From positions 663,478 to 727,477 of the forward strand of contig JACPSJ010000001.1 in NCBI GenBank assembly GCA_016193315.1: a stretch of 64,000 bases of DNA, given 5' to 3'. This DNA comes from Candidatus Kerfeldbacteria bacterium. Lineage in GTDB: Bacteria; Patescibacteriota; Patescibacteriia; SBBC01; CAIJZX01. Of the stretch, positions 7,060 through 40,736 are shown in pieces. The position numbers were made by a program, and so were the translations under genes. The first letter of the stretch is position 1. Every line of letters starts with the position of its first letter. The notes under the pieces were generated by a model. It ran no database searches, had not been told where the DNA came from, and worked only from the letters and a program-made list of their open reading frames with translations.

Positions 7060-7687
7060 TGAACTCCGGCCAATGCTTCTTGGTGAAGTAGAGTTCGCTG
7101 TACACTCCTTGCCAAGCCAAGAAGTTGCTCAGCCGCTGCTCGCCAGAGGTGCGAATGATCAGGTCAGGATCCGGCTGATGGGCCGTGTAGAGCCGCTCGC
7201 TGATCGAGGCCTCGGTGATCTTTGACGCGTCGCGGGCTTCTTTCATCAGTTTCTTGACCGCGTCGACGATCTCCGTTCGACCGCCGTAGTTGATGGCCAG
7301 CTGGAGCGTGCCGCGGGTGTTGTCCTTCGTCTTTTCGACCGCCGCTTGGACGCGCTTCTGGAGCCGCTTCGGTAGACCGGTAATCCGACCGATAACGGCA
7401 ATGCGGACGTTCTTCCGGTGGAGATCGTCAAGGTCTTTGGACAGGCCTATTTCGAGCAGACGCATCAAGTATCCGACTTCGCGTTTCGATCGGGCCCAGT
7501 TCTCCGTCGAAAAAGCAAAAACCGTCAGGACTTCAATCCCGCGGTCAAGGCACCAATCGCCGGCCTTCTTCAAAACCGTATACCCCCGGCGGTGGCCTTC
7601 GAGCGGCGGCAAGCCGTGCCGTTTGGCCCAGCGCCGGTTGCCGTCCATAATGATGCCGAGATGCTTTACGCCGTGATTCAATACCAT
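6995..7687 (-). CDS. uppS: Undecaprenyl diphosphate synthase (isoprenyl transferase)
   Basis: HLGIIMDGNRRWAKRHGL motif and C-terminal ...RQRRFGH. Start set at the Met (MVLNHGVKHLGII) rather than the longer upstream ORF. Confidence 0.85.
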   Translation of the reverse strand: MVLNHGVKHLGIIMDGNRRWAKRHGLPPLEGHRRGYTVLKKAGDWCLDRGIEVLTVFAFSTENWARSKREVGYLMRLLEIGLSKDLDDLHRKNVRIAVIGRITGLPKRLQKRVQAAVEKTKDNTRGTLQLAINYGGRTEIVDAVKKLMKEARDASKITEASISERLYTAHQPDPDLIIRTSGEQRLSNFLAWQGVYSELYFTKKHWPEFSEHDLDDALREFALRQRRFGH

Positions 7688-9949: not shown

Positions 9950-10030
9950 TGGTCGGGGTGGCGGGGATCGAACCCACGACCTCACGGACCCGCCCCGAAT
10001 AAAGCGAGCCGTAATTGATTCCTCTCCCCG
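9950..10030 (-). other. Orphan tRNA 3'-half fragment (variable loop + T-arm + acceptor 3' strand + encoded CCA) with no matching 5' half
   Basis: RC reads ...CCGTGAGGTC GTGGG TTCGATC CCCGC CACCCCG A CCA. T-stem/loop and acceptor are tRNA-Pro-like but differ from the adjacent intact tRNA-Pro. Confidence 0.6.
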
Positions 10031-10033
10031 CAG

Positions 10034-10106
10034 TCGGGGTACCGAGACTCGAACTCGGGACCTCACGCACCCGAAGCGTGCGCGCTACCAACTGCGCTAT
10101 ACCCCG
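10034..10106 (-). tRNA. tRNA-Pro (anticodon CGG)
   Basis: RC = CGGGGTA TA GCGC AGTTGGTA GCGC G CACGC TTCGGGT GCGTG AGGTC CCGAG TTCGAGT CTCGG TACCCCG A. All four stems are canonical. CCA is not encoded. Confidence 0.85.
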
Positions 10107-10107
10107 A

Positions 10108-10260
10108 CTGCGGGGAGAAATAATGTCTCGCTTTTACGGGGCAAGAACCGTGCGCTTGCCGCGTTTTATGCGGCGCTACCAACTGCCTGCCCCGTCATCC
10201 CGCGCGAGCGGGATTTTACGGGGCGCTACACCTCGACTGGGCGCCGGACGCGCTCCGTCA
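10108..10260 (-). other. Degenerate tRNA-derived debris (three decayed copies of a tRNA-Pro-like D-arm / 5' region)
   Basis: RC contains GGCAGTTGGTAGCGCC and GGTGTAGCGCCCCGTAAAA next to the CAGTTGGTAGCGCG D-arm of the intact tRNA. GCCCCGTAAAA occurs twice. Confidence 0.45.
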
Positions 10261-33209: not shown

Positions 33210-33390
33210 TGTAGGGATCCTCCCTATTCGGGTGTGAAGGTGCTCCTAGAGCGATTTGCTCTAATTGGACGCATCTTAGCAATCGCCTCTCTTTTGTCAA
33301 GCGCCGTCGCGACGGCGCATTCTGGTTCTAACCTAACTTCGCCCTCTTAATGGAGGGGTAATGAATATTAATCGAAAAGTGTGGCAGGGG

Positions 33391-33411
33391 CACTAGGATT
33401 CGTCCCTGGGC
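33391..33411 (-). repeat. 21-bp direct repeat identical to the 3' end of tRNA-Trp (CGAATCCTAGTGCCCCTGCCA), 130 bp downstream of the gene
   Basis: tggcaggggcactaggattcg occurs at 33391 and again as the 3' end of tRNA-Trp at 33542. Confidence 0.7.
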
Positions 33412-33541: not shown

Positions 33542-33615
33542 TGGCAGGGGCACTAGGATTCGAACCTAGAATAGAGGTTTTGGAGACCTCCGTGATACCG
33601 TTTCACCATGCCCCC
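33542..33615 (-). tRNA. tRNA-Trp (anticodon CCA), CCA encoded
   Basis: RC = GGGGGCA TG GTGA AACGGTA TCAC G GAGGT CTCCAAA ACCTC TATT CTAGG TTCGAAT CCTAG TGCCCCT G CCA. Confidence 0.85.
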
Positions 33616-34271: not shown

Positions 34272-34380
34272 TGGAGCCAGGACGATGCGAACCGCCGACC
34301 TGCTGTATTTCCCGCGCCAGCCTGGAGCCAGTGGTCGGATTTGAACCGACGACCTTCGCTTTATCCCGCCCCACAAGCCC
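34272..34380 (-). other. Two tandem orphan tRNA 3'-half fragments (T-arm + acceptor 3' strand + CCA), the distal one degenerate
   Basis: RC 34323-34380 = GGGCTTGTGGGGCGGG ATAAAGCGA AGGTC GTCGG TTCAAAT CCGAC CACTGGC T CCA. 34272-34320 is a decayed copy ending TGGCTCCA. Confidence 0.6.
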
Positions 34381-34455
34381 TGGAGCCCACGGTCAGATTC
34401 GAACTGACGACCGGCTGTTTACAAAACAGCTGCTCTGCCCCTGAGCTACGTGGGC
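34381..34455 (-). tRNA. tRNA-Thr (anticodon UGU), CCA encoded
   Basis: RC = GCCCACG TA GCTC AGGGGCA GAGC A GCTGT TTTGTAA ACAGC CGGTC GTCAG TTCGAAT CTGAC CGTGGGC T CCA. Confidence 0.85.
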
Positions 34456-34537
34456 TTGTGGGGCGGGACTCTTGACCCCGTTTCATGGTGCCTGGTCGGG
34501 GTGATACGAGTCATTCAATCTAGTATATACTATCACC

Positions 34538-36469
34538 ATGGGTTTCCCCGGTTTATCCCGGCGCGATATCTGGATCGGCGCCACGCTGATTGTCATCCCG
34601 GTGCTGTTCGCGTTGCCAACGATCACGAAAAACCTCCCGCTTTCGCCAGGAGATTATATCAACCAGTATTATATCTGGCAATCCTATTTCGTCAAGTCGA
34701 TCCAGAGTTTCAACATTCCGTTTTGGAACCCATGGGTCTTTGGCGGGGCTCCGTTTTTTGCCAACCCGCAAACCGCCGCGCTGTCTCCCTTTTCGTGGAT
34801 GCTACTCCCCTTTCATCCAAATCCTGTCCTGCCGGGGTTCATCCTCGACCTGCAGTTTTGTTTTATCGTCGGAGTCGGGACGCTCGGCGTCTACCTCTGG
34901 TTACGCCGATGGTTTTCCGAATTGCCTTCAACCCTCGGCGCGGGCCTATGGTTCTTCAGCCCGGTTGGACTCTGGTTACTTCGTGACTCGACGACCGCCA
35001 TGGCAACTATCGCCTGGTGGCCGTTTCTCCTGTACTTTACCGACCGACTAATCGATCGCCGGTCTCGGCGCGGGGTCGCCGCTCTGGCCGGGACGATTGC
35101 GCTCAGCTGGTTCGCCGGTCATCCGCCGACGTTTGTCGCCAGTTTGCTCGGTCTGGGCCTGTACGGCATTGCTCGGATCGGCAAGTCGTGGCGAACATGG
35201 AGGGCTATGGTGGTGGCCACGTGTTCCGGTCTCGGGCTGGCGGCCGTGCAACTCTTCCCAGCGTTGGACTTCGTCGCGCAAACCACGCAGGTCGCGGTGA
35301 CAGCTGGCAATGCCCTGCCAACCATAACGCCGTTCGGCCTGTCGGCGTCCGTTGTGACGGCCGATGCATATCGATTCGTGCCGGTGACGATCGGAGTAGT
35401 CCCACTCCTATTTGTCATCATCGCCTGGCGACACCGCGTCCACTCCGTCCTGGGCGCGTGGATGAAATTTTGTGTCCTCGGGACGATCGCATTGGCCGCG
35501 ATCATCGCCGCTCGCGAGTGGCTGGCAACGGTGCCATTCATCCATAACCTCGTGCGTTATCCGTGGCGGTACGTCTTCCTCCCATTAACCGCCGTCCTGC
35601 CGATGGCGGTGGCCGGTTTCGCCGGATGGAACAACACTGTCCGTTCACGCCGGCGTACAACCCAGAAGCTGATCGTCACTCTGGGGCTATTCGGCCTGGC
35701 AGTTTCCGTCACCAACACGAATTGGATTTCGACGGCCTCAATTGCTGGCAGTACCATCATCCTTCTCTTGACCACGTTCCGATTTGATATGGAACGCTCT
35801 TCTTCGCGCTTGCTCATCGCCGTGGTGGCGCTCGCGTCCGTCGCCCTGACCTGGAGCCGGGCGTTACCGGATAGTTCAGGACGGACGTGGACGGAGATTT
35901 CCCGACAATTCGCTGTCCTGCGCCAAGCTCCTGACACCGGCGACCGAATCGTGACCGGCGGAGACAAACTCCGAGGGAACGGTTCGATGCTCTATTCCCG
36001 CCCGAACGTCGGCGGCTACGATTCTCTCCTCCTCCGGTCCTACCGCCGGCTGGAAAGGAATGGCGGGTCGGCCGGCCTAAACGGTCGATGGCGGTTGAAC
36101 GGAGTCCGTTGGGAGGAACAGCTAGCCCGGAGGCGAGCATGGGTTGAAGGTCAACGGTCAGACGTCCAGGTTTACCGAGCATCCACTGGTCGGTTGACAG
36201 TACGAGTCGAAACCACCTGGCCCGGTCGATTGGTACTCAACCAACCGTATGAAAAGAACTGGTCAGCTTCAGCTGGTAGCGATCTGGATCTTCCGACCGA
36301 ACCAAACCGTCAAGGATACCTGACCGTGCAAGTGCCGGCGGGAAGAACTCAAATCAACCTCCGATATCTCCCGGGAGGACTATTTACCGGCTTCCTGGTT
36401 ACGACCCTGACAGTAGCCTGGCTTCTCTGGTGGAACCGGCCAACGGTGGTAAAACGGCCGGACAGTTAA
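34538..36469 (+). CDS. Large polytopic membrane protein, YfhO/DUF2142-like putative glycosyltransferase
   Basis: 643 aa with ~12 or more TM helices in the N-terminal two-thirds and a C-terminal soluble domain. Family call is tentative. Confidence 0.45.
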   Translation: MGFPGLSRRDIWIGATLIVIPVLFALPTITKNLPLSPGDYINQYYIWQSYFVKSIQSFNIPFWNPWVFGGAPFFANPQTAALSPFSWMLLPFHPNPVLPGFILDLQFCFIVGVGTLGVYLWLRRWFSELPSTLGAGLWFFSPVGLWLLRDSTTAMATIAWWPFLLYFTDRLIDRRSRRGVAALAGTIALSWFAGHPPTFVASLLGLGLYGIARIGKSWRTWRAMVVATCSGLGLAAVQLFPALDFVAQTTQVAVTAGNALPTITPFGLSASVVTADAYRFVPVTIGVVPLLFVIIAWRHRVHSVLGAWMKFCVLGTIALAAIIAAREWLATVPFIHNLVRYPWRYVFLPLTAVLPMAVAGFAGWNNTVRSRRRTTQKLIVTLGLFGLAVSVTNTNWISTASIAGSTIILLLTTFRFDMERSSSRLLIAVVALASVALTWSRALPDSSGRTWTEISRQFAVLRQAPDTGDRIVTGGDKLRGNGSMLYSRPNVGGYDSLLLRSYRRLERNGGSAGLNGRWRLNGVRWEEQLARRRAWVEGQRSDVQVYRASTGRLTVRVETTWPGRLVLNQPYEKNWSASAGSDLDLPTEPNRQGYLTVQVPAGRTQINLRYLPGGLFTGFLVTTLTVAWLLWWNRPTVVKRPDS

Positions 36470-36479
36470 CTCTCCTCTC

Positions 36480-36620
36480 GCCACCATGCCTGGAGCCGAT
36501 GTCGCCGCCATTCGACGGGGTGACCCAGCCCTTACCATGGCGTTGCCCTGCCTGCCCGAACCTGAGCCCATGCGCGGAATTGAACCGCGAACCTACTCCT
36601 TACCCCGCCTGCCACGCGCC
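36480..36620 (-). other. Degenerate 3'-half copies of a tRNA-Thr(GGU)-like gene (tRNA debris)
   Basis: TGAGCCCATGCGCGGAATTGAACCGCGAACCTACTCCTTACC and TGGAGCCGATGTCGCCGCC...CTTACCATGG resemble the 3' half of the intact tRNA at 36621-36696. Confidence 0.55.
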
Positions 36621-36696
36621 TGGAGCCGATGCGCGGATTTGAACCGCGGACCTACTCCTTACCATGGAGTTGCTCTACCAACTGAGCTACATCGGC
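36621..36696 (-). tRNA. tRNA-Thr (anticodon GGU), CCA encoded
   Basis: RC = GCCGATG TA GCTC AGTTGGTA GAGC A ACTCC ATGGTAA GGAGT AGGTC CGCGG TTCAAAT CCGCG CATCGGC T CCA. Confidence 0.85.
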
Positions 36697-36720
36697 GCGA
36701 GGCGACTGGCGGGCAGGCGT

Positions 36721-36760
36721 GGAGTTGCTCTACCAGCTGAGCTACATGGGCCCGGGTTCA
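36721..36760 (-). other. Orphan tRNA 5'-half (acceptor + D-arm + 5' anticodon stem) of a tRNA-Thr-like gene
   Basis: RC = GCCCATG TA GCTC AGCTGGTA GAGC A ACTCC ACGC. Its acceptor GCCCATG matches the CATGGGC of the 3' fragment at ~36560-36610. Confidence 0.55.
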
Positions 36761-36836
36761 GGCCGGTGGGTCTGCCAGCTGCTGACGCTAGTATCCGGCT
36801 TTGCCGGGCGTGTCCGGGAATTACGCGGGCACGAAA

Positions 36837-37727
36837 CTACAATTCGGACAGCCGCTGTTCCCACTCAACGATCTTCGAGTTGTCAGGGTTCTTGGCCTTG
36901 ACTTTGGCAACGGCATCTTCGGCAAACTGCTTCTTTCCATAGCCTAAGGAGACTTCGATCAATTCGTCAAGAACCTTGGGGTTGTTCGGTTCGAGCCGGA
37001 CGGCCTCTTGCACGCTCTGAAACGCGTCGGCCCAATGACCAAGACCTCGTTCAACCTGCGCCAGCTCGAGATAGTAGGTCATGACTGCTCCGTTGAGGGC
37101 AATGGCCTGACGGATTTCCTGTCCGGCCTCTTGGAGGTGGCCGGCGGCGATGTCGGCTTCGGCCAGATGTTCGTAGGTGGCGTCGGAGTCGCCGACCAGT
37201 TTGAGTAGGTACTTATAGACTTCTTTGGCATGACCATATTCTTTCATCCCCAGGTAGAGCTGGCCGAGGAGCTGGAAGGCTGGCACGGACCGGGGATCAA
37301 GTCTGATCGCCTGGAGGACTTTTCCTTCGGCCGCCCGGTACTCTTCGTCTCGGCGGAAGAGTTGGGCTTGGTCGAGCAGCTGAGCGATGTGACGATCCAC
37401 TTTCTGACGCTGGCGTCGATTGAGAAAGATCGGCAGTGACCGGACCTGGTATTCATGCTCCAGGTCGAGTAACTTTCGCTGCGACCGTTTCAGGATAGTG
37501 GTGGCCTGGCGAATGAGCGGCTGGCCGGTGGTGGCCGCCTTGGACCACCAGCTTTGAAACTTCCGCTTCAGACGCTCCTCCAGTAATGAACTCTTCCGGG
37601 CCGCCAATGGGTGGGGGGCGGACTCTCCCCGCAAGGCGGCCAGCAGCGGGAATTTTCGCAGGATGAGCGTCGCCACCCCGGCCAGGCTGAGGAACAGAAC
37701 TAGCAGGGCGATGAAGTCAAGAGACAT
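36837..37727 (-). CDS. TPR-repeat protein with N-terminal TM anchor
   Basis: N-terminal hydrophobic helix, then multiple 34-residue TPR-like repeats (AFQLLGQLYLGMKEYGHAKEVYKYLL, etc.). Confidence 0.65.
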   Translation of the reverse strand: MSLDFIALLVLFLSLAGVATLILRKFPLLAALRGESAPHPLAARKSSLLEERLKRKFQSWWSKAATTGQPLIRQATTILKRSQRKLLDLEHEYQVRSLPIFLNRRQRQKVDRHIAQLLDQAQLFRRDEEYRAAEGKVLQAIRLDPRSVPAFQLLGQLYLGMKEYGHAKEVYKYLLKLVGDSDATYEHLAEADIAAGHLQEAGQEIRQAIALNGAVMTYYLELAQVERGLGHWADAFQSVQEAVRLEPNNPKVLDELIEVSLGYGKKQFAEDAVAKVKAKNPDNSKIVEWEQRLSEL

Positions 37728-37738
37728 CCGGTGTCGTC

Positions 37739-38326
37739 CTAAAGGCTGAGTCGGCTGAAACGCCGAACCTGAATGTTCTCGCCGAGTTTGGCCGTGGCGG
37801 CGTTCAGGAGATCGGCAATCGACTGGGTGTCATCACGGATATATGGTTGTTCAAGGAGACAGACTTCGGCATAAAATTTCTCGAGTTTCCCGGGGACGAT
37901 CCGCGACCACATGGTGGCCGGCTTACCAGCCTGGCGCAGCTGTTGATGGATGATTTCTTCCTCGTGGGCGACCACGGCCGAGGGGATATCGGCTGGTTTC
38001 AAGTACTGAGGGTCAGTCGCCGCGACCTGCATCGCTAGCTCGTGCGCGAGCTGGCGGAAATCGTCGGTCCGGGCGACAAAATCGGTTTCGCAGGCCAGGA
38101 CCACCATCGCCGCGACCCGGCCATTATTGTGCACGTACACCCCGATCGTACCCTCGGTCGTAGTCCGCTCAGACTTTTGCCGCGCGATCTTCTTCCCGGC
38201 CTTCCGTAATTCGGTCGCGGCCCGAGTCAGATTCCCACCCGTTGCTTCAAGCGCCCGCTTCGCTTCCAGGACACCGACGCCGGTTTGCTGACGGAGTTTC
38301 TGAATGTCGGCTGGAGCGATGGTCAT
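37739..38326 (-). CDS. tsf: Elongation factor Ts (short form, 195 aa)
   Basis: N-terminal UBA-like LRQQTGVGVLEAKRALEATGGNL and the EF-Ts core. 4-nt overlap with rpsB. Confidence 0.85.
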   Translation of the reverse strand: MTIAPADIQKLRQQTGVGVLEAKRALEATGGNLTRAATELRKAGKKIARQKSERTTTEGTIGVYVHNNGRVAAMVVLACETDFVARTDDFRQLAHELAMQVAATDPQYLKPADIPSAVVAHEEEIIHQQLRQAGKPATMWSRIVPGKLEKFYAEVCLLEQPYIRDDTQSIADLLNAATAKLGENIQVRRFSRLSL

Positions 38327-39087
38327 GGGTTTGATACGGTCCGTGCCGTGGCAGCCTCATCGGCCGTGGCCGTGGTCGCCGTGACGGCCGCCTGGGACTG
38401 CTGGAGCTGTTGCTGGCCCGCCATCACGGATTCGACGATGGCATCGGTCAGGAGTTTGATCGATTTCGTGGCATCGTCATTCGCCGGGATCGGGTAGGCA
38501 ATGGCCGCCGGGTTGACGTTCGTATCGCACAGCGCCACGACGGGAATCCCGACCTTTTTGGCTTCGGCCACCGCCGTTTTCTCAGTTTTTATATCGACGA
38601 TGAAAACTGCGGCCGGCAGTGCCTCCATCGACCCCAGGCCGCCAACCAATCGATCGAGACGCTCCAGCTCCCCTTGCAGTCCGAGTTGCTCCTTCTTGGT
38701 GTACTTGGCCCAGCCACCAGCGGCGCGTTCCTCTTTCAAGCGCTGAAGCGTCGCGATCAGCTGACGGACGGTGGCAAAGTTAGTAAATAAGCCCCCAATC
38801 CACCGTTCCACGACGTACGGCATCGACACCCGCTGGGCGGCCTCCTGGATACTGCTTTGCGCCTGGCGTTTGGTACCGACAAACAGGACGGTCTTGCCGT
38901 TGGCTACCAGGTCGCGGAGGAAAGCCGCGGCTCGACCAAGGGCGGCCTGGGTTTGTTCGAGGTTGATAATCGAAATGCCATGGCGCGTGTCGAAGATGGC
39001 TTCAGCCATCTTCGGATGACGGCGACTCTGCTGGTGGCCAAAGTGGACACCATGCTGGAGCATTTCCAAAAGCGTCAATCCTGACAT
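38323..39087 (-). CDS. rpsB: 30S ribosomal protein S2
   Basis: LLEMLQHGVHFGHQQSRRHPKM N-terminus and S2 core. Confidence 0.9.
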   Translation of the reverse strand: MSGLTLLEMLQHGVHFGHQQSRRHPKMAEAIFDTRHGISIINLEQTQAALGRAAAFLRDLVANGKTVLFVGTKRQAQSSIQEAAQRVSMPYVVERWIGGLFTNFATVRQLIATLQRLKEERAAGGWAKYTKKEQLGLQGELERLDRLVGGLGSMEALPAAVFIVDIKTEKTAVAEAKKVGIPVVALCDTNVNPAAIAYPIPANDDATKSIKLLTDAIVESVMAGQQQLQQSQAAVTATTATADEAATARTVSNP

Positions 39088-39323
39088 GACATTCCTTTCT
39101 TCCGCCTGGGGGACGGACCGCTACCCGACATTTTTCCGGTGGCCCCTCAGATTTTTAACCTCGGGGAGGAAGCGGAGTGACCAACTCATAGTGAGTCGGC
39201 CCATCGGGTATGTGAGATGAATAAGATAGACGATGAAGAATAGCTGCCCATTCAGCCGCGACGAGTATACCACGGGCTGCCCGGCTTGACAAGGGACGGC
39301 CGCCAGCCTATACTCGGCTGGCT

Positions 39324-39620
39324 ATGAAAACTGGCCTCCATCCCGAGTACACCCACCAGGCCAAGATCGAGTGCACCACCTGTGGTCACCGTTGGCAGAC
39401 TGGTTCGACCGTCAAAGAGATGAGGGTTGAGGTCTGTTCGAATTGCCATCCGTTCTTTACCGGCCAGCAACAGATGATCGATACGGCCGGTCGGGTTGAT
39501 CGATTCAAACGGATGACCGCCAAGCACCAGTCCGTCCGTCGGCCGGTTCGGAGCAAGCGCACCAAACTCCAGGCGAAGAAAACTCGCAAGGTGGCCAAGG
39601 CCACGGCGCCCGAAGCTTAA
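39324..39620 (+). CDS. rpmE: 50S ribosomal protein L31 with Lys/Arg-rich C-terminal extension
   Basis: [18 protein letters not shown]...[10 protein letters not shown] zinc-ribbon motifs, plus a ~25-aa basic tail. Confidence 0.85.
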
Positions 39621-39668
39621 CAGCCCACCCCTTCCGTCCGCCAGCCGGACGCGGTCTTAGGTTCGCCG

Positions 39669-40736
39669 ATGTCTATCCCCCGTCAACAAGTCGACCAACT
39701 TCGACGTCAGTACCAGCAGCTGGCGGATGAAGTTAATGATCTGAGCCACGGTAGTGACCCAGCCCGACGGCGATCGGTCGCGAAACGCTATGCCCAAGTG
39801 GCCGAGTTAGTGACGAAAGTCGAGCAGCTGGATGAACTCGAGCGTCAGGTGAGTGAGCTACGAAAAACCGCGGCCGCCGGTGACCCGGAATTGGCCGCGC
39901 TGGTGGCTGAAGAATTGCCCGGAATCCAGGACCAACTAGCCCATCTCGAACGCCACCTCCGGGCCGCCCTCCAGCCGGCCGACCCGTTTGATGGGCGCGA
40001 CATCATTGTCGAGATTCGGGCCGGCGCCGGCGGTCACGAAGCGGCCCTCTTCGCGGCCGAGCTGTTCCGGATGTACTCCCGTTTCGCCGAACGACAGGGG
40101 TGGACCACCAGCCTCTTATCATCTCACCAAACCACACTCGGTGGGTTCAAGGAGGTCATTTTTGAAGTCACCGGCGACGGCGTGTACCGATGGATGAAGT
40201 ATGAGAGTGGCGTTCATCGGGTCCAGCGCGTGCCGGCCACGGAGAAAAGCGGTCGTGTTCATACCTCCACCGTCACCACGGCGGTCATTCCCGAAGCCGA
40301 GGAGGAAGAATTATCCATTGCGCCCCAGGATCTGAAGATTGAAACGTCCACCGCCCGCGGCCACGGCGGCCAATCAGTCAACACCACCTACTCGGCCATT
40401 CGCCTGACGCATGTGCCGACTGGCATCGTCGTCTCGATGCAAGACGAACGCTCGCAGACGCAAAACCGTCTCAAGGCCATGCGGGTACTCCGAGCCAGGT
40501 TGCTGGCCCGCCAAGAGGCAGAACGGCTGGCCCAAGCGTCAGCGCTTCGGAAGCAACAAATTGGCACTGGCCAGCGGGCGGAAAAAATTAGGACGTACAA
40601 CTTCCCCCAAAACCGGGTGACTGACCACCGTCTCAAGGTGACCGTCCACCACCTCGATCGATTCCTCGACGGCGACCTGCGACCGCTCCTTGACCAGCTG
40701 CGACAGGTCGAACAGGCGACTGCGCCCCGCCGATGA
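39669..40736 (+). CDS. prfA: Peptide chain release factor 1
   Basis: GGQ motif (RGHGGQSVNTT) and RF1-type PAT tripeptide (RVPATEKSGR). Confidence 0.9.
   Translation: MSIPRQQVDQLRRQYQQLADEVNDLSHGSDPARRRSVAKRYAQVAELVTKVEQLDELERQVSELRKTAAAGDPELAALVAEELPGIQDQLAHLERHLRAALQPADPFDGRDIIVEIRAGAGGHEAALFAAELFRMYSRFAERQGWTTSLLSSHQTTLGGFKEVIFEVTGDGVYRWMKYESGVHRVQRVPATEKSGRVHTSTVTTAVIPEAEEEELSIAPQDLKIETSTARGHGGQSVNTTYSAIRLTHVPTGIVVSMQDERSQTQNRLKAMRVLRARLLARQEAERLAQASALRKQQIGTGQRAEKIRTYNFPQNRVTDHRLKVTVHHLDRFLDGDLRPLLDQLRQVEQATAPRR

Follow-up and report, generated by a model that had tools for sequence, protein, structure and literature searches.

Miniature inverted-repeat transposable elements (MITEs), doublets of repetitive extragenic palindromic (REP) sequences (REPINs) and Rickettsia palindromic elements are short and non-coding, end in inverted repeats that form hairpins, and occur in many copies that are present or absent at orthologous sites; their insertions are tolerated in RNA genes and, where the frame is kept, in protein genes, and their copies nest within copies. 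The GC clusters of yeast mitochondria are reportedly counted among the palindromic, non-autonomous elements of this same kind. In bacterial 23S rRNA, intervening sequences put an extended hairpin in place of a loop in a gene for a structured RNA; they have a patchy distribution and spread horizontally. Exact junctions without target-site duplication are a property of IS200/IS605-, IS91- and IS110-type elements. Genes for tRNAs are usually taken as stable, vertically inherited landmarks and tRNA fragments as the scars of large integrated elements; in the Islander study, displaced tRNA fragments are said to mark integrations. Integrative elements at tRNA genes are kilobase-sized and have the displaced fragment at their far end (PMC9897764). 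In tRNA-dependent lysogeny, as outlined for phages, integration destroys a host tRNA gene and a tRNA gene of the invader compensates for the loss (PMC10865867). Archaea have disrupted tRNA genes, with non-canonical introns or in split and permuted form, for which a mobile-element origin has been proposed, also at a tRNA-Thr(GGU) locus (PMC3293823; PMC4090602), and in bacteria horizontally mobile group I introns occur in tRNA anticodon loops (bioRxiv 10.1101/2020.01.27.920355). Here we describe a locus that departs from the landmark view, in a 64,000-nucleotide stretch of the genome of a Candidatus Kerfeldbacteria bacterium (contig JACPSJ010000001.1, positions 663,478 to 727,477; hereafter the window). 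At this locus a very small element appears to have swapped a tRNA gene for a foreign isoacceptor, leaving the old gene as a shell.

The minus strand from 36799 to 36491 holds three concentric tRNA-Thr(GGU) genes, of which the innermost (36696-36621) alone is intact. We think it probable that this three-layered "Russian doll" arose when a small, non-coding kind of mobile element, with inverted-repeat ends and a tRNA as cargo, inserted precisely twice in succession. The argument draws on the anatomy of the locus, on exact junctions without target duplication, on presence and absence of the insert among relatives, on its near-identity across diverged hosts, on foreign cargos, and on targets restricted to loops of genes with the same anticodon. 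From the outside inwards and out again, the nest consists of these parts:

36771 to 36799, minus strand: 5' part of layer 3 (the outermost and presumably native gene), a decayed acceptor strand and D-arm GCCGGATACTAGCGTCAGCAGCTGGCAGA stopping at about position 23; it bears direct repeat D3 and alignment A1 with the genes of relatives.
36752 to 36770, minus strand: left arm of the layer-2 element, CCCACCGGCCTGAACCCGG; it belongs to inverted repeat I2 and is 82% complementary to 36551-36572.
36718 to 36751, minus strand: 5' half of layer 2, tRNA positions 1-34, GCCCATG ... ACTCC A C G, with C at position 33; alignment score 54 against a null maximum of 29.
36697 to 36717, minus strand: left arm of the inner element, made up of the conserved terminus CCTGCCCGCC (36717-36708) and the interior AGTCGCCTCGC (36707-36697); inverted repeats I1 and I6.
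36621 to 36696, minus strand: inner, intact tRNA-Thr(GGU) with encoded CCA, the cargo and presumed working gene (ARAGORN, Rfam).
36604 to 36620, minus strand: right arm of the inner element, made up of the interior GGCGCGT (36620-36614) and the conserved terminus GGCAGGCGGG (36613-36604); inverted repeats I1 and I6.
36563 to 36603, minus strand: 3' half of layer 2, positions 35-76, GTAA GGAGT ... CATGGGC T CA; score 67 against a null maximum of 29, with G69 compensating C4.
36547 to 36562, minus strand: right arm of the layer-2 element, GGTTCGGGCAGGCAGG, ending in the terminus variant GGCAGGCAGG; direct repeat D6, inverted repeat I2 and a motif match at 36547.
36491 to 36546, minus strand: 3' part of layer 3, from about position 24 to CCA, GCAACGCCATGGTAAGGGCT...CATCGGCTCCA, with decayed stems; direct repeats D4 and D5 and alignment A1 fall here, and the score is 44 against a null maximum of 29.

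Both ARAGORN and Rfam call the inner gene as the sole intact tRNA of the locus (71.1 bits with the Rfam tRNA model). When this gene is aligned locally with its own flanks, its 5' half (positions 1-32) is found at 36751-36720, its 3' half (positions 34-74) at 36604-36564 and a decayed 3' part (positions 18-76) at 36552-36491, with scores of 54, 67 and 44, respectively; shuffled flanks give a median of 17 and a maximum of 29. The fragments are present on both sides, colinear, and only 17-23 nt away from the inner gene. An initial annotation of this DNA had placed an intact tRNA-Thr(GGU) between the 5' and 3' halves of an older gene, and the scores of 54 and 67 bear it out; its caveat, that the halves might resemble a tRNA no better than chance, falls away with alignments so far above those of the shuffled flanks. 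The extent it gave (36480-36770) encloses a real nest, whose structure nevertheless reaches 36799 and has a third 5' part at 36799-36771, and the "further decayed copy" that it listed is indeed there (score 44) as the 3' part of this third layer rather than as a separate copy.

The insert around the inner gene is 114 nt long (36717-36604), 76 nt of which are tRNA, and has no protein-coding capacity. It ends in imperfect inverted repeats (CCTGCCCGCC... / ...GGCAGGCGGG), and the flank repeat CGCCTGCC/GGCAGGCG of the inner gene is present. It divides the layer-2 gene precisely between positions 34 and 35 with zero outer nucleotides lost: after its removal in silico, ARAGORN finds a tRNA-Thr(GGU) cloverleaf that is perfect save for U33C, with a 3' end reading CA, not CCA. 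The spliced junction would read ...ACUCCACG-GUAAGGAGU..., and the sequence across the uninterrupted site is ...ACTCCAYG|GTAAGGAGT.... The two layer-2 halves pair as C4:G69 and the inner gene as G4:C69, a compensatory change. Layer 2 sits in turn within the D-arm of the decayed layer-3 gene, which ARAGORN does not recognise as a tRNA even when spliced in silico; its 5' part starts 38 nt past the stop codon of a TPR protein gene, just where relatives keep a single tRNA-Thr(GGU). The predicted fold of the whole region is one cloverleaf within another (dG -100 kcal/mol, z = -5.8). The further claim, that the intact gene and its short GC-rich inverted-repeat flanks occupy the anticodon loop of an older tRNA-Thr, is thus upheld, and amounts to the replacement of a tRNA gene. 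The flanks prove to be the paired arms of an element that is widespread and conserved; this had been overlooked, and it is the key to the locus. Canonical arm termini occur nowhere else in the window. Rfam contains no family that matches the arms or the outer halves, and the outer halves alone are not called as tRNA. A promoter scan of 36350-36950 found none; the inner gene is probably read from upstream.

Relatives of the locus were located through homologues of EF-Ts (59-66% identity), which gave eight syntenic loci where tRNAs follow the gene order L31-S2-EF-Ts-TPR; a search of species genomes with the gene for a 643-aa protein that neighbours the nest found none. In six organisms (L247, L250, L251, L252, L253/L254 and L255) one uninterrupted tRNA-Thr(GGU) lies a few bases past the TPR stop codon, followed by Tyr, Thr-UGU, rpmG and Trp, with the limitation that the sequences of L254 and L255 stop short of the 3' end of tRNA-Thr(GGU). 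The ancestral state was therefore a single gene and not a tandem pair, the arrangement that the initial annotation had named as a possible source of the layout. A seventh relative, L249, has the insert of the window at the same 34/35 junction (...CCATG|CCTGCC), identical at 91 of 92 positions from the arm terminus to the end of the contig, the left arm of the inner element being identical at 21 of 21. The two hosts are strongly diverged, with 42% identity at third codon positions of EF-Ts and 70% identity of the TPR DNA. Moreover, the outer half in L249 is of the host type (GCCGTTG, with U33 intact), as in the native genes of L250, L251 and L252 and unlike that of the window, from which it differs right next to the junction: in the D-loop, at position 33 (C33 versus T33) and in the acceptor stem. 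The near-identical insert in so diverged a host implies that the element moved between diverged hosts together with its cargo.

The relatives have peculiarities of their own. In L247 (6573-6835) a tRNA-Tyr is nested after position 38, with the arms in reverse orientation (CCCGCCTGCC...GGCGGGCAGG) and with long AT-rich arm interiors; 7245-7545 of the same sequence holds a tRNA-Trp, then an older copy with a hairpin in its T-loop and a further 3' fragment. In L252 (2005-2430) the 3' half of tRNA-Tyr and its downstream flank are repeated about 310 nt on, which looks more like the duplicated attachment site of a classic integration with a short remnant in between. Next to the tRNA cluster or prfA, L253 (4981-5759) and L249 (2344-2601) have small GIY-YIG genes and a 23S_rRNA_IVP/bAvd-like gene.

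To see how widespread the element is, we scanned species genomes for pairs of D-arms less than 60 nt apart, which yielded 79 loci, about a dozen of them true nests. The arm termini of the window recur in L032 (Val), L059 (Ala), L042 (Thr-UGU) and L061 (Thr-CGU), and the left terminus also in L045, L051 and L070, in viral contigs and in the metagenome matches described next. Relative to the tRNA the arms are found in both orientations, being reversed in L042, L061 and the Tyr nest of L247. Metagenomes were scanned for a left terminus, a T-loop and a right terminus in one arm orientation, and this gave more than 120 matches, a lower bound. Among the 121 listed, 117 enclose an intact tRNA, with 27 anticodons represented. 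In 60 of these 121, ARAGORN recognises a tRNA spanning the junction once the element has been deleted in silico, and in 51 of the 60 its anticodon is that of the cargo; in the other 61 listed matches the outer gene is unrecognisable, and some outer genes have a changed anticodon. In the listed matches the junctions fall at positions 18-25, 33-37 and 53-57, that is in the D-, anticodon- and T-loops, and the target bases are neither duplicated nor lost. A cognate fragment abuts the element in 76 of 109 distinct records listed, compared with 0.4% of shuffles, and wherever fragments occur on both sides they are colinear (32 of 32 listed records). The insert measures 100-135 nt elsewhere when it holds a tRNA and 30-51 nt when it does not. 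Its arms form an imperfect palindrome with fixed asymmetric positions. A comparison of covariation in the arm interiors between own and swapped pairs (0.59 versus 0.54) is blunted by the uniformity of the family.

Some loci hold several copies of the element (L032, L059 and L136). At L136 (2290-2980) there is a tandem array of five units, each a left arm plus the 5' part of a tRNA-Arg with a hairpin insert in its D-loop, as well as two units of a 3' part plus right arm and three tRNA-less copies, so that the number of layers is unequal on the two sides. A scan of 120 loci for an autonomous version, as arm pairs 300-3000 nt apart, turned up only this L136 array and no enclosed open reading frame (ORF).

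With respect to the cargo, the inner and outer genes of the 47 distinct listed nests with an intact outer gene are a median of 77% identical, and where they differ, compensatory pairs outnumber mismatches by 111 to 10 in the acceptor stem and by 42 to 7 in the T stem; this comparison covers ARAGORN-recognisable outer genes only and is biased accordingly. Since decay after a local duplication could not produce differences that are mostly compensatory pairs, the cargo is in general foreign. In L032 the acceptor stem and T arm of the outer tRNA-Val are wholly different from those of the inner gene, yet self-complementary. Cargos of the same isotype are also more alike than the outer genes that contain them (0.83 versus 0.75). 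The arm interiors define families, one of which, a Gln family, has members in different Gln genes at positions 18, 35 and 54-55.

Versions that lack a tRNA measure 30-51 nt and are found in viral contigs, within ORFs with the frame kept, and in the loop of a further copy. The viral contigs contain 27 such matches, some of them probably due to chance in GC-rich DNA. The comparison of a filled site in L105 with an empty one in L088 shows a tRNA-less insert of 33 nt, from CCTGCC to GGCGGG, without duplication and within the loop of another copy. The length of the tRNA-less matches is a multiple of three in 20 of 25. Copies of this kind lie inside long open frames (L107 11303-11336, L115 1442-1478, L032 5663-5705 and other viral loci among L100-L126), including frames of 1244 aa with a RadC domain and of 1486 aa and a Y-family polymerase, the L032 copy lying within the polymerase domain of the last. 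The tRNA-bearing form was also sought in the viral contigs: the pattern with the T-loop gave none, and without it there were 15 matches, none with a tRNA, which are mostly chance in GC-rich DNA except that those of L088 and L095 are adjacent pairs of tRNA-less copies. The two orientations and the tRNA-less copies outside tRNA genes suggest that the element behaves as DNA.

The history of the locus would then have been as follows. An older element would have entered the native gene just past the TPR gene, in the D-arm at about position 23/24; later the current 114-nt element (36717-36604) would have entered the cargo of the older one at positions 34/35 of the anticodon loop. Each insertion would kill the resident gene and provide a working isoacceptor transcribed from the same spot, and the event would be near neutral because the destroyed gene is replaced. 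The outer halves would be left to decay, with only the innermost gene functional, and any later invasion of the cargo would add one more layer. The element travels horizontally with its cargo and would move as DNA, perhaps with the help of an enzyme that acts in trans and reads the arms in their folded, possibly single-stranded form; a precise, duplication-free insertion confined to loops, taken with imperfect palindromic arms of fixed asymmetry, points to a mechanism that reads structure. Selection may account for at least part of the restriction to targets of the same anticodon, since a cell would not survive the loss of any other single-copy tRNA gene to an insertion. Other insertion schemes do not give this layout: a circular element with its attachment site inside the tRNA would leave two tandem hybrid genes and a very long target duplication would leave tandem copies, in neither case a nest, and snap-back synthesis of the right arm from the 5' leader was dropped as a candidate because the arm termini are conserved between unrelated loci. 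We are evenly divided about the broader proposal that such nests represent a previously unrecognised class of self-compensating, hairpin-armed mini-elements, each with a whole tRNA gene and entering cognate loops with base precision, probably via a folded single-stranded intermediate, which drive horizontal tRNA gene replacement across the candidate phyla radiation (CPR) and beyond, with phages possibly carrying the tRNA-less form. A search of the open-access literature by arm sequences and keywords found no description of nested tRNA genes or of the arms.

Several points weigh against such a mobile element. No mobilising enzyme was found among the roughly 55 ORFs of the window, and no excised or circular form was seen. 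The nests of L018, L051, L078 and L084, like the Pro and Thr-UGU nests of the window described below, have quite different arm sequences, and the arms may therefore be less site-specific than a usual transposase site. How a tRNA first came to lie between the arms is left unexplained. The tRNA-bearing copies sit nearly all in cognate genes, beyond what a survival filter alone would clearly predict, which hints at a homology-dependent step. The inner and outer copies are 99-100% identical in L247 (Tyr, 100%), L136 (Arg) and L146 (Thr-UGU); such nests would fit copying in place or gene conversion as well as they fit transfer. Finally, there is the bias, noted above, of the inner/outer comparison towards recognisable outer genes.

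A homology-dependent step is at the heart of a scheme without any transposition, in which a nest arises rarely and then spreads by homologous recombination of taken-up DNA, its outer halves serving as homology arms, rather like homing without an endonuclease. The 34/35 junction shared by the window and L249, the near confinement of tRNA-bearing copies to cognate genes and the location of the insertion points in the most conserved segments of the tRNA are all in keeping with this, as is the combination of host-type distal acceptor stems with a foreign cargo, which crossovers in short arms would yield. We nevertheless regard it as unlikely, considering that a single Gln arm family with related cargos is found in three loops (18, 35 and 54-55), that tRNA-less arms occur in ORFs and in the loops of other copies, where there is no tRNA homology, that the outer halves of the window and L249 differ beside the junction, and that both arm orientations exist. 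Very unlikely, in our view, is an explanation at the RNA level, in which the nest is transcribed whole, the inner tRNA is excised and the outer halves are joined, giving two tRNAs per transcript with the inner one as the intron of the other, as the initial annotation had entertained. The predicted cloverleaf-in-cloverleaf fold, the almost perfect preservation of layer 2, the finding that about half of the outer genes in the listed matches still fold and the limitation of the insertions to loops would all suit it; tRNA loops are places where RNases cut tRNAs. Yet the decay grows outward, from U33C and CA for CCA in layer 2 to an unrecognisable layer 3, 61 of the 121 listed outer genes are likewise unrecognisable, and some outer genes have altered anticodons. 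There is no bulge-helix-bulge in the minimum-energy fold, where the outer anticodon stem runs into the arm helix with irregularities of 1-2 nt instead of two 3-nt bulges 4 bp apart. No Rfam intron matches 36400-36850 even at E <= 10, the 114-nt insert compares with at least 200 nt for a group I intron, and no splicing endonuclease or ligase is found among the ORFs of the 64 kb examined. Moreover, the arms come in both orientations and lie in ORFs with lengths that are multiples of three, and the 23/24 insertion in the D-arm falls inside a stem strand. A split or permuted tRNA gene was also considered and rejected: a complete gene of the same anticodon lies between the halves, which are hence not the sole copy.

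An anticodon-loop integrase had also been proposed, and a related possibility, which we hold to be most improbable, is that the nests are remnants of integrase-mediated integrations with tRNA-bearing attachment sites, later deleted down to short scars. The D-loop is reportedly missing from the integrase sublocations known to Williams in 2002, which would count against such remnants. Classic integration sites are indeed tRNA genes and displaced fragments are common there (PMC9897764), each of the window's four tRNA genes is followed by extra 3' sequence of its kind, and the Tyr 3' half of L252 is repeated with its flank. Integration, however, leaves one fragment at the far end, not colinear halves hugging a whole gene. 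No integrase is present among the approximately 55 ORFs of the window, and random deletion would not yield inserts of 100-135 nt (114 nt here) with conserved termini in more than 100 independent cases. A purely local origin, by tandem tRNA duplications followed by deletions or by template switching at a quasi-palindrome, would dispense with a mobile element altogether. The tandem arrays of L136 must have grown by slippage or unequal crossing-over, the inner and outer Tyr copies of L247 are the same, and a Clostridia clade has an orphan 5' piece of tRNA-Phe and nothing more. This origin is scarcely tenable for the nest itself: the relatives have a single gene and no tandems, unrelated genomes and viral contigs have the same conserved arm termini, the element is identical at 91 of 92 positions between hosts with saturated silent sites, and inner and outer genes differ by compensatory changes. 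The compensatory differences, the relatives and L249 have already largely refuted it. As the source is a metagenome-assembled genome (MAG), the examples are mostly metagenomic and the Logan contigs end within the inner tRNA, conserved tRNA k-mers of several organisms might also have been stitched together by the assembler. We consider the chance of this negligible, since both sides of the nest (34414-36678 and 36662-40727) are reproduced exactly in Logan assemblies of four other, independent sequencing runs. Beyond the source assembly, the two sides are joined in the inner anticodon arm by an overlap of 17 nt. The arms, furthermore, have no tRNA k-mers able to cause a mis-join, the outer halves co-vary with each other, and base-precise junctions recur in hundreds of assemblies made by different software, one of them on an 822-kb contig.

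The window has four tRNA genes, Pro-CGG, Trp, Thr-UGU and Thr-GGU, all on the minus strand (ARAGORN, Rfam), and additional 3' parts lie downstream of every one of them. The surrounding genes are ordinary housekeeping ones (rpsB, tsf, the TPR protein gene, prfA, dnaE, thrS, tgt and others), and a Pfam search of the approximately 55 ORFs revealed no integrase, transposase or other recombinase, no reverse transcriptase and no RNA-splicing enzyme. Where relatives have a tRNA-Tyr between the two Thr genes, the window has none and instead an opposite-strand gene for a YfhO-like membrane protein of 643 aa (34538-36469), whose nearest homologue is just 29% identical.

The initial annotation had seen the same nested pattern at three loci of the window, and they prove to be only partly alike: the Pro-CGG locus has a 3' half and broken 5' pieces, and the Thr-UGU locus two 3' parts and no 5' half. 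The tRNA-Pro(CGG) gene (10033-10106, minus strand; region 9952-10240) lies in a perfect 19-bp inverted repeat of 12 flank bases plus 7 acceptor bases, with a second, outer pair of arms (CCCCGTAAAAGCGAG... / ...CTCGCTTTATTCGGGGC). CCA is encoded in its outer 3' half (9992-9952) but not in the intact gene; the broken 5' pieces upstream are CGAGGTGTAGCGC and, after a hairpin insert of 37 nt, AGTTGGTAGCGC at 10186-10169. In architecture the locus matches the Thr-GGU nest, with different arm sequences. The tRNA-Thr(UGU) gene (34381-34455, minus strand; region 34272-34468) is bounded by a perfect 17-nt inverted repeat (TCCCGCCCCACAAGCCC / GGGCTTGTGGGGCGGGA) and followed by two successive 3' parts (34354-34323 and 34306-34272), both ending in CCA; a 5' half is not recognisable. 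The tRNA-Trp gene (33542-33615) has an exact 21-nt copy of its 3' end, from T-loop to CCA, 140 nt downstream at 33382-33402, with an inverted T-loop piece between the two.

Two other arrangements were met with in distant genomes. In more than 25 Clostridia assemblies (L006, L008, L017, L019-L021, L025, L027, L029, L034, L035, L038, L040 and others) an orphan 5' piece of tRNA-Phe (positions 1-41) lies exactly 56 nt upstream of the intact gene; with neither a 3' fragment nor GC-rich arms, this is a separate case. A Bryobacteraceae MAG (L013, 5380-5720) has a tRNA-Thr(GGU) preceded at 43 nt by a 5' part (1-26) and followed by three 3' parts (18-76) in tandem, repeating every 71 nt.

If the proposed element is real, it would be a route of horizontal tRNA gene turnover in bacteria whose tRNA genes appear to be single-copy at the loci examined, and the nests would be natural replacement experiments that tell which foreign tRNAs cells tolerate. 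Perhaps, to speculate, foreign isoacceptors alter the exposure of the cell to tRNA-cutting toxins or phage enzymes. On a more practical level, nested halves confuse tRNA annotation and break short-read assemblies.

With MITE-like elements the element shares its shortness, terminal inverted repeats, many copies and presence or absence at a site; target-site duplication, however, is missing. Unlike MITEs, REPINs, Rickettsia palindromic elements and GC clusters, it holds a complete tRNA gene in its loop, and its tRNA-bearing copies sit almost only in the loops of same-anticodon genes; whereas REP-type sequences are lineage specific, its arm termini are common to several phyla and to viral contigs. 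The intervening sequences of 23S rRNA, by contrast, carry no gene, and the rRNA is functional as fragments after cutting by RNase III. Group I introns are ribozymes of at least 200 nt with a conserved catalytic core, in host tRNAs that are functional; no Rfam intron is present here. With the phages, integrative and conjugative elements and islands found at tRNA genes the locus has a logic in common: the invader splits a tRNA gene, brings sequence that keeps a working gene, and displaced fragments mark the event (PMC9897764). Those elements encode an integrase and replace one part of the gene, whereas here 100-135 nt, with no protein gene, bring a whole tRNA and both halves abut the insert. The nearest published ideas are tRNA-dependent lysogeny, as far as its outline goes (PMC10865867), and the mobile-element model for Archaea (PMC3293823). 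The former involves a whole integrase-bearing prophage with the compensating tRNA elsewhere in the phage (PMC10865867), in contrast to a nested miniature element. For the latter, the locus would be a testable bacterial counterpart to ideas on the origin of disrupted tRNA genes, in which GC-rich complementary sequences likewise abut the halves (PMC3293823; PMC4090602). In Archaea, however, the interrupted gene is functional and its RNA is repaired by the splicing endonuclease at a bulge-helix-bulge, whereas here it is the interrupted gene that decays and the insert that would be the working gene.

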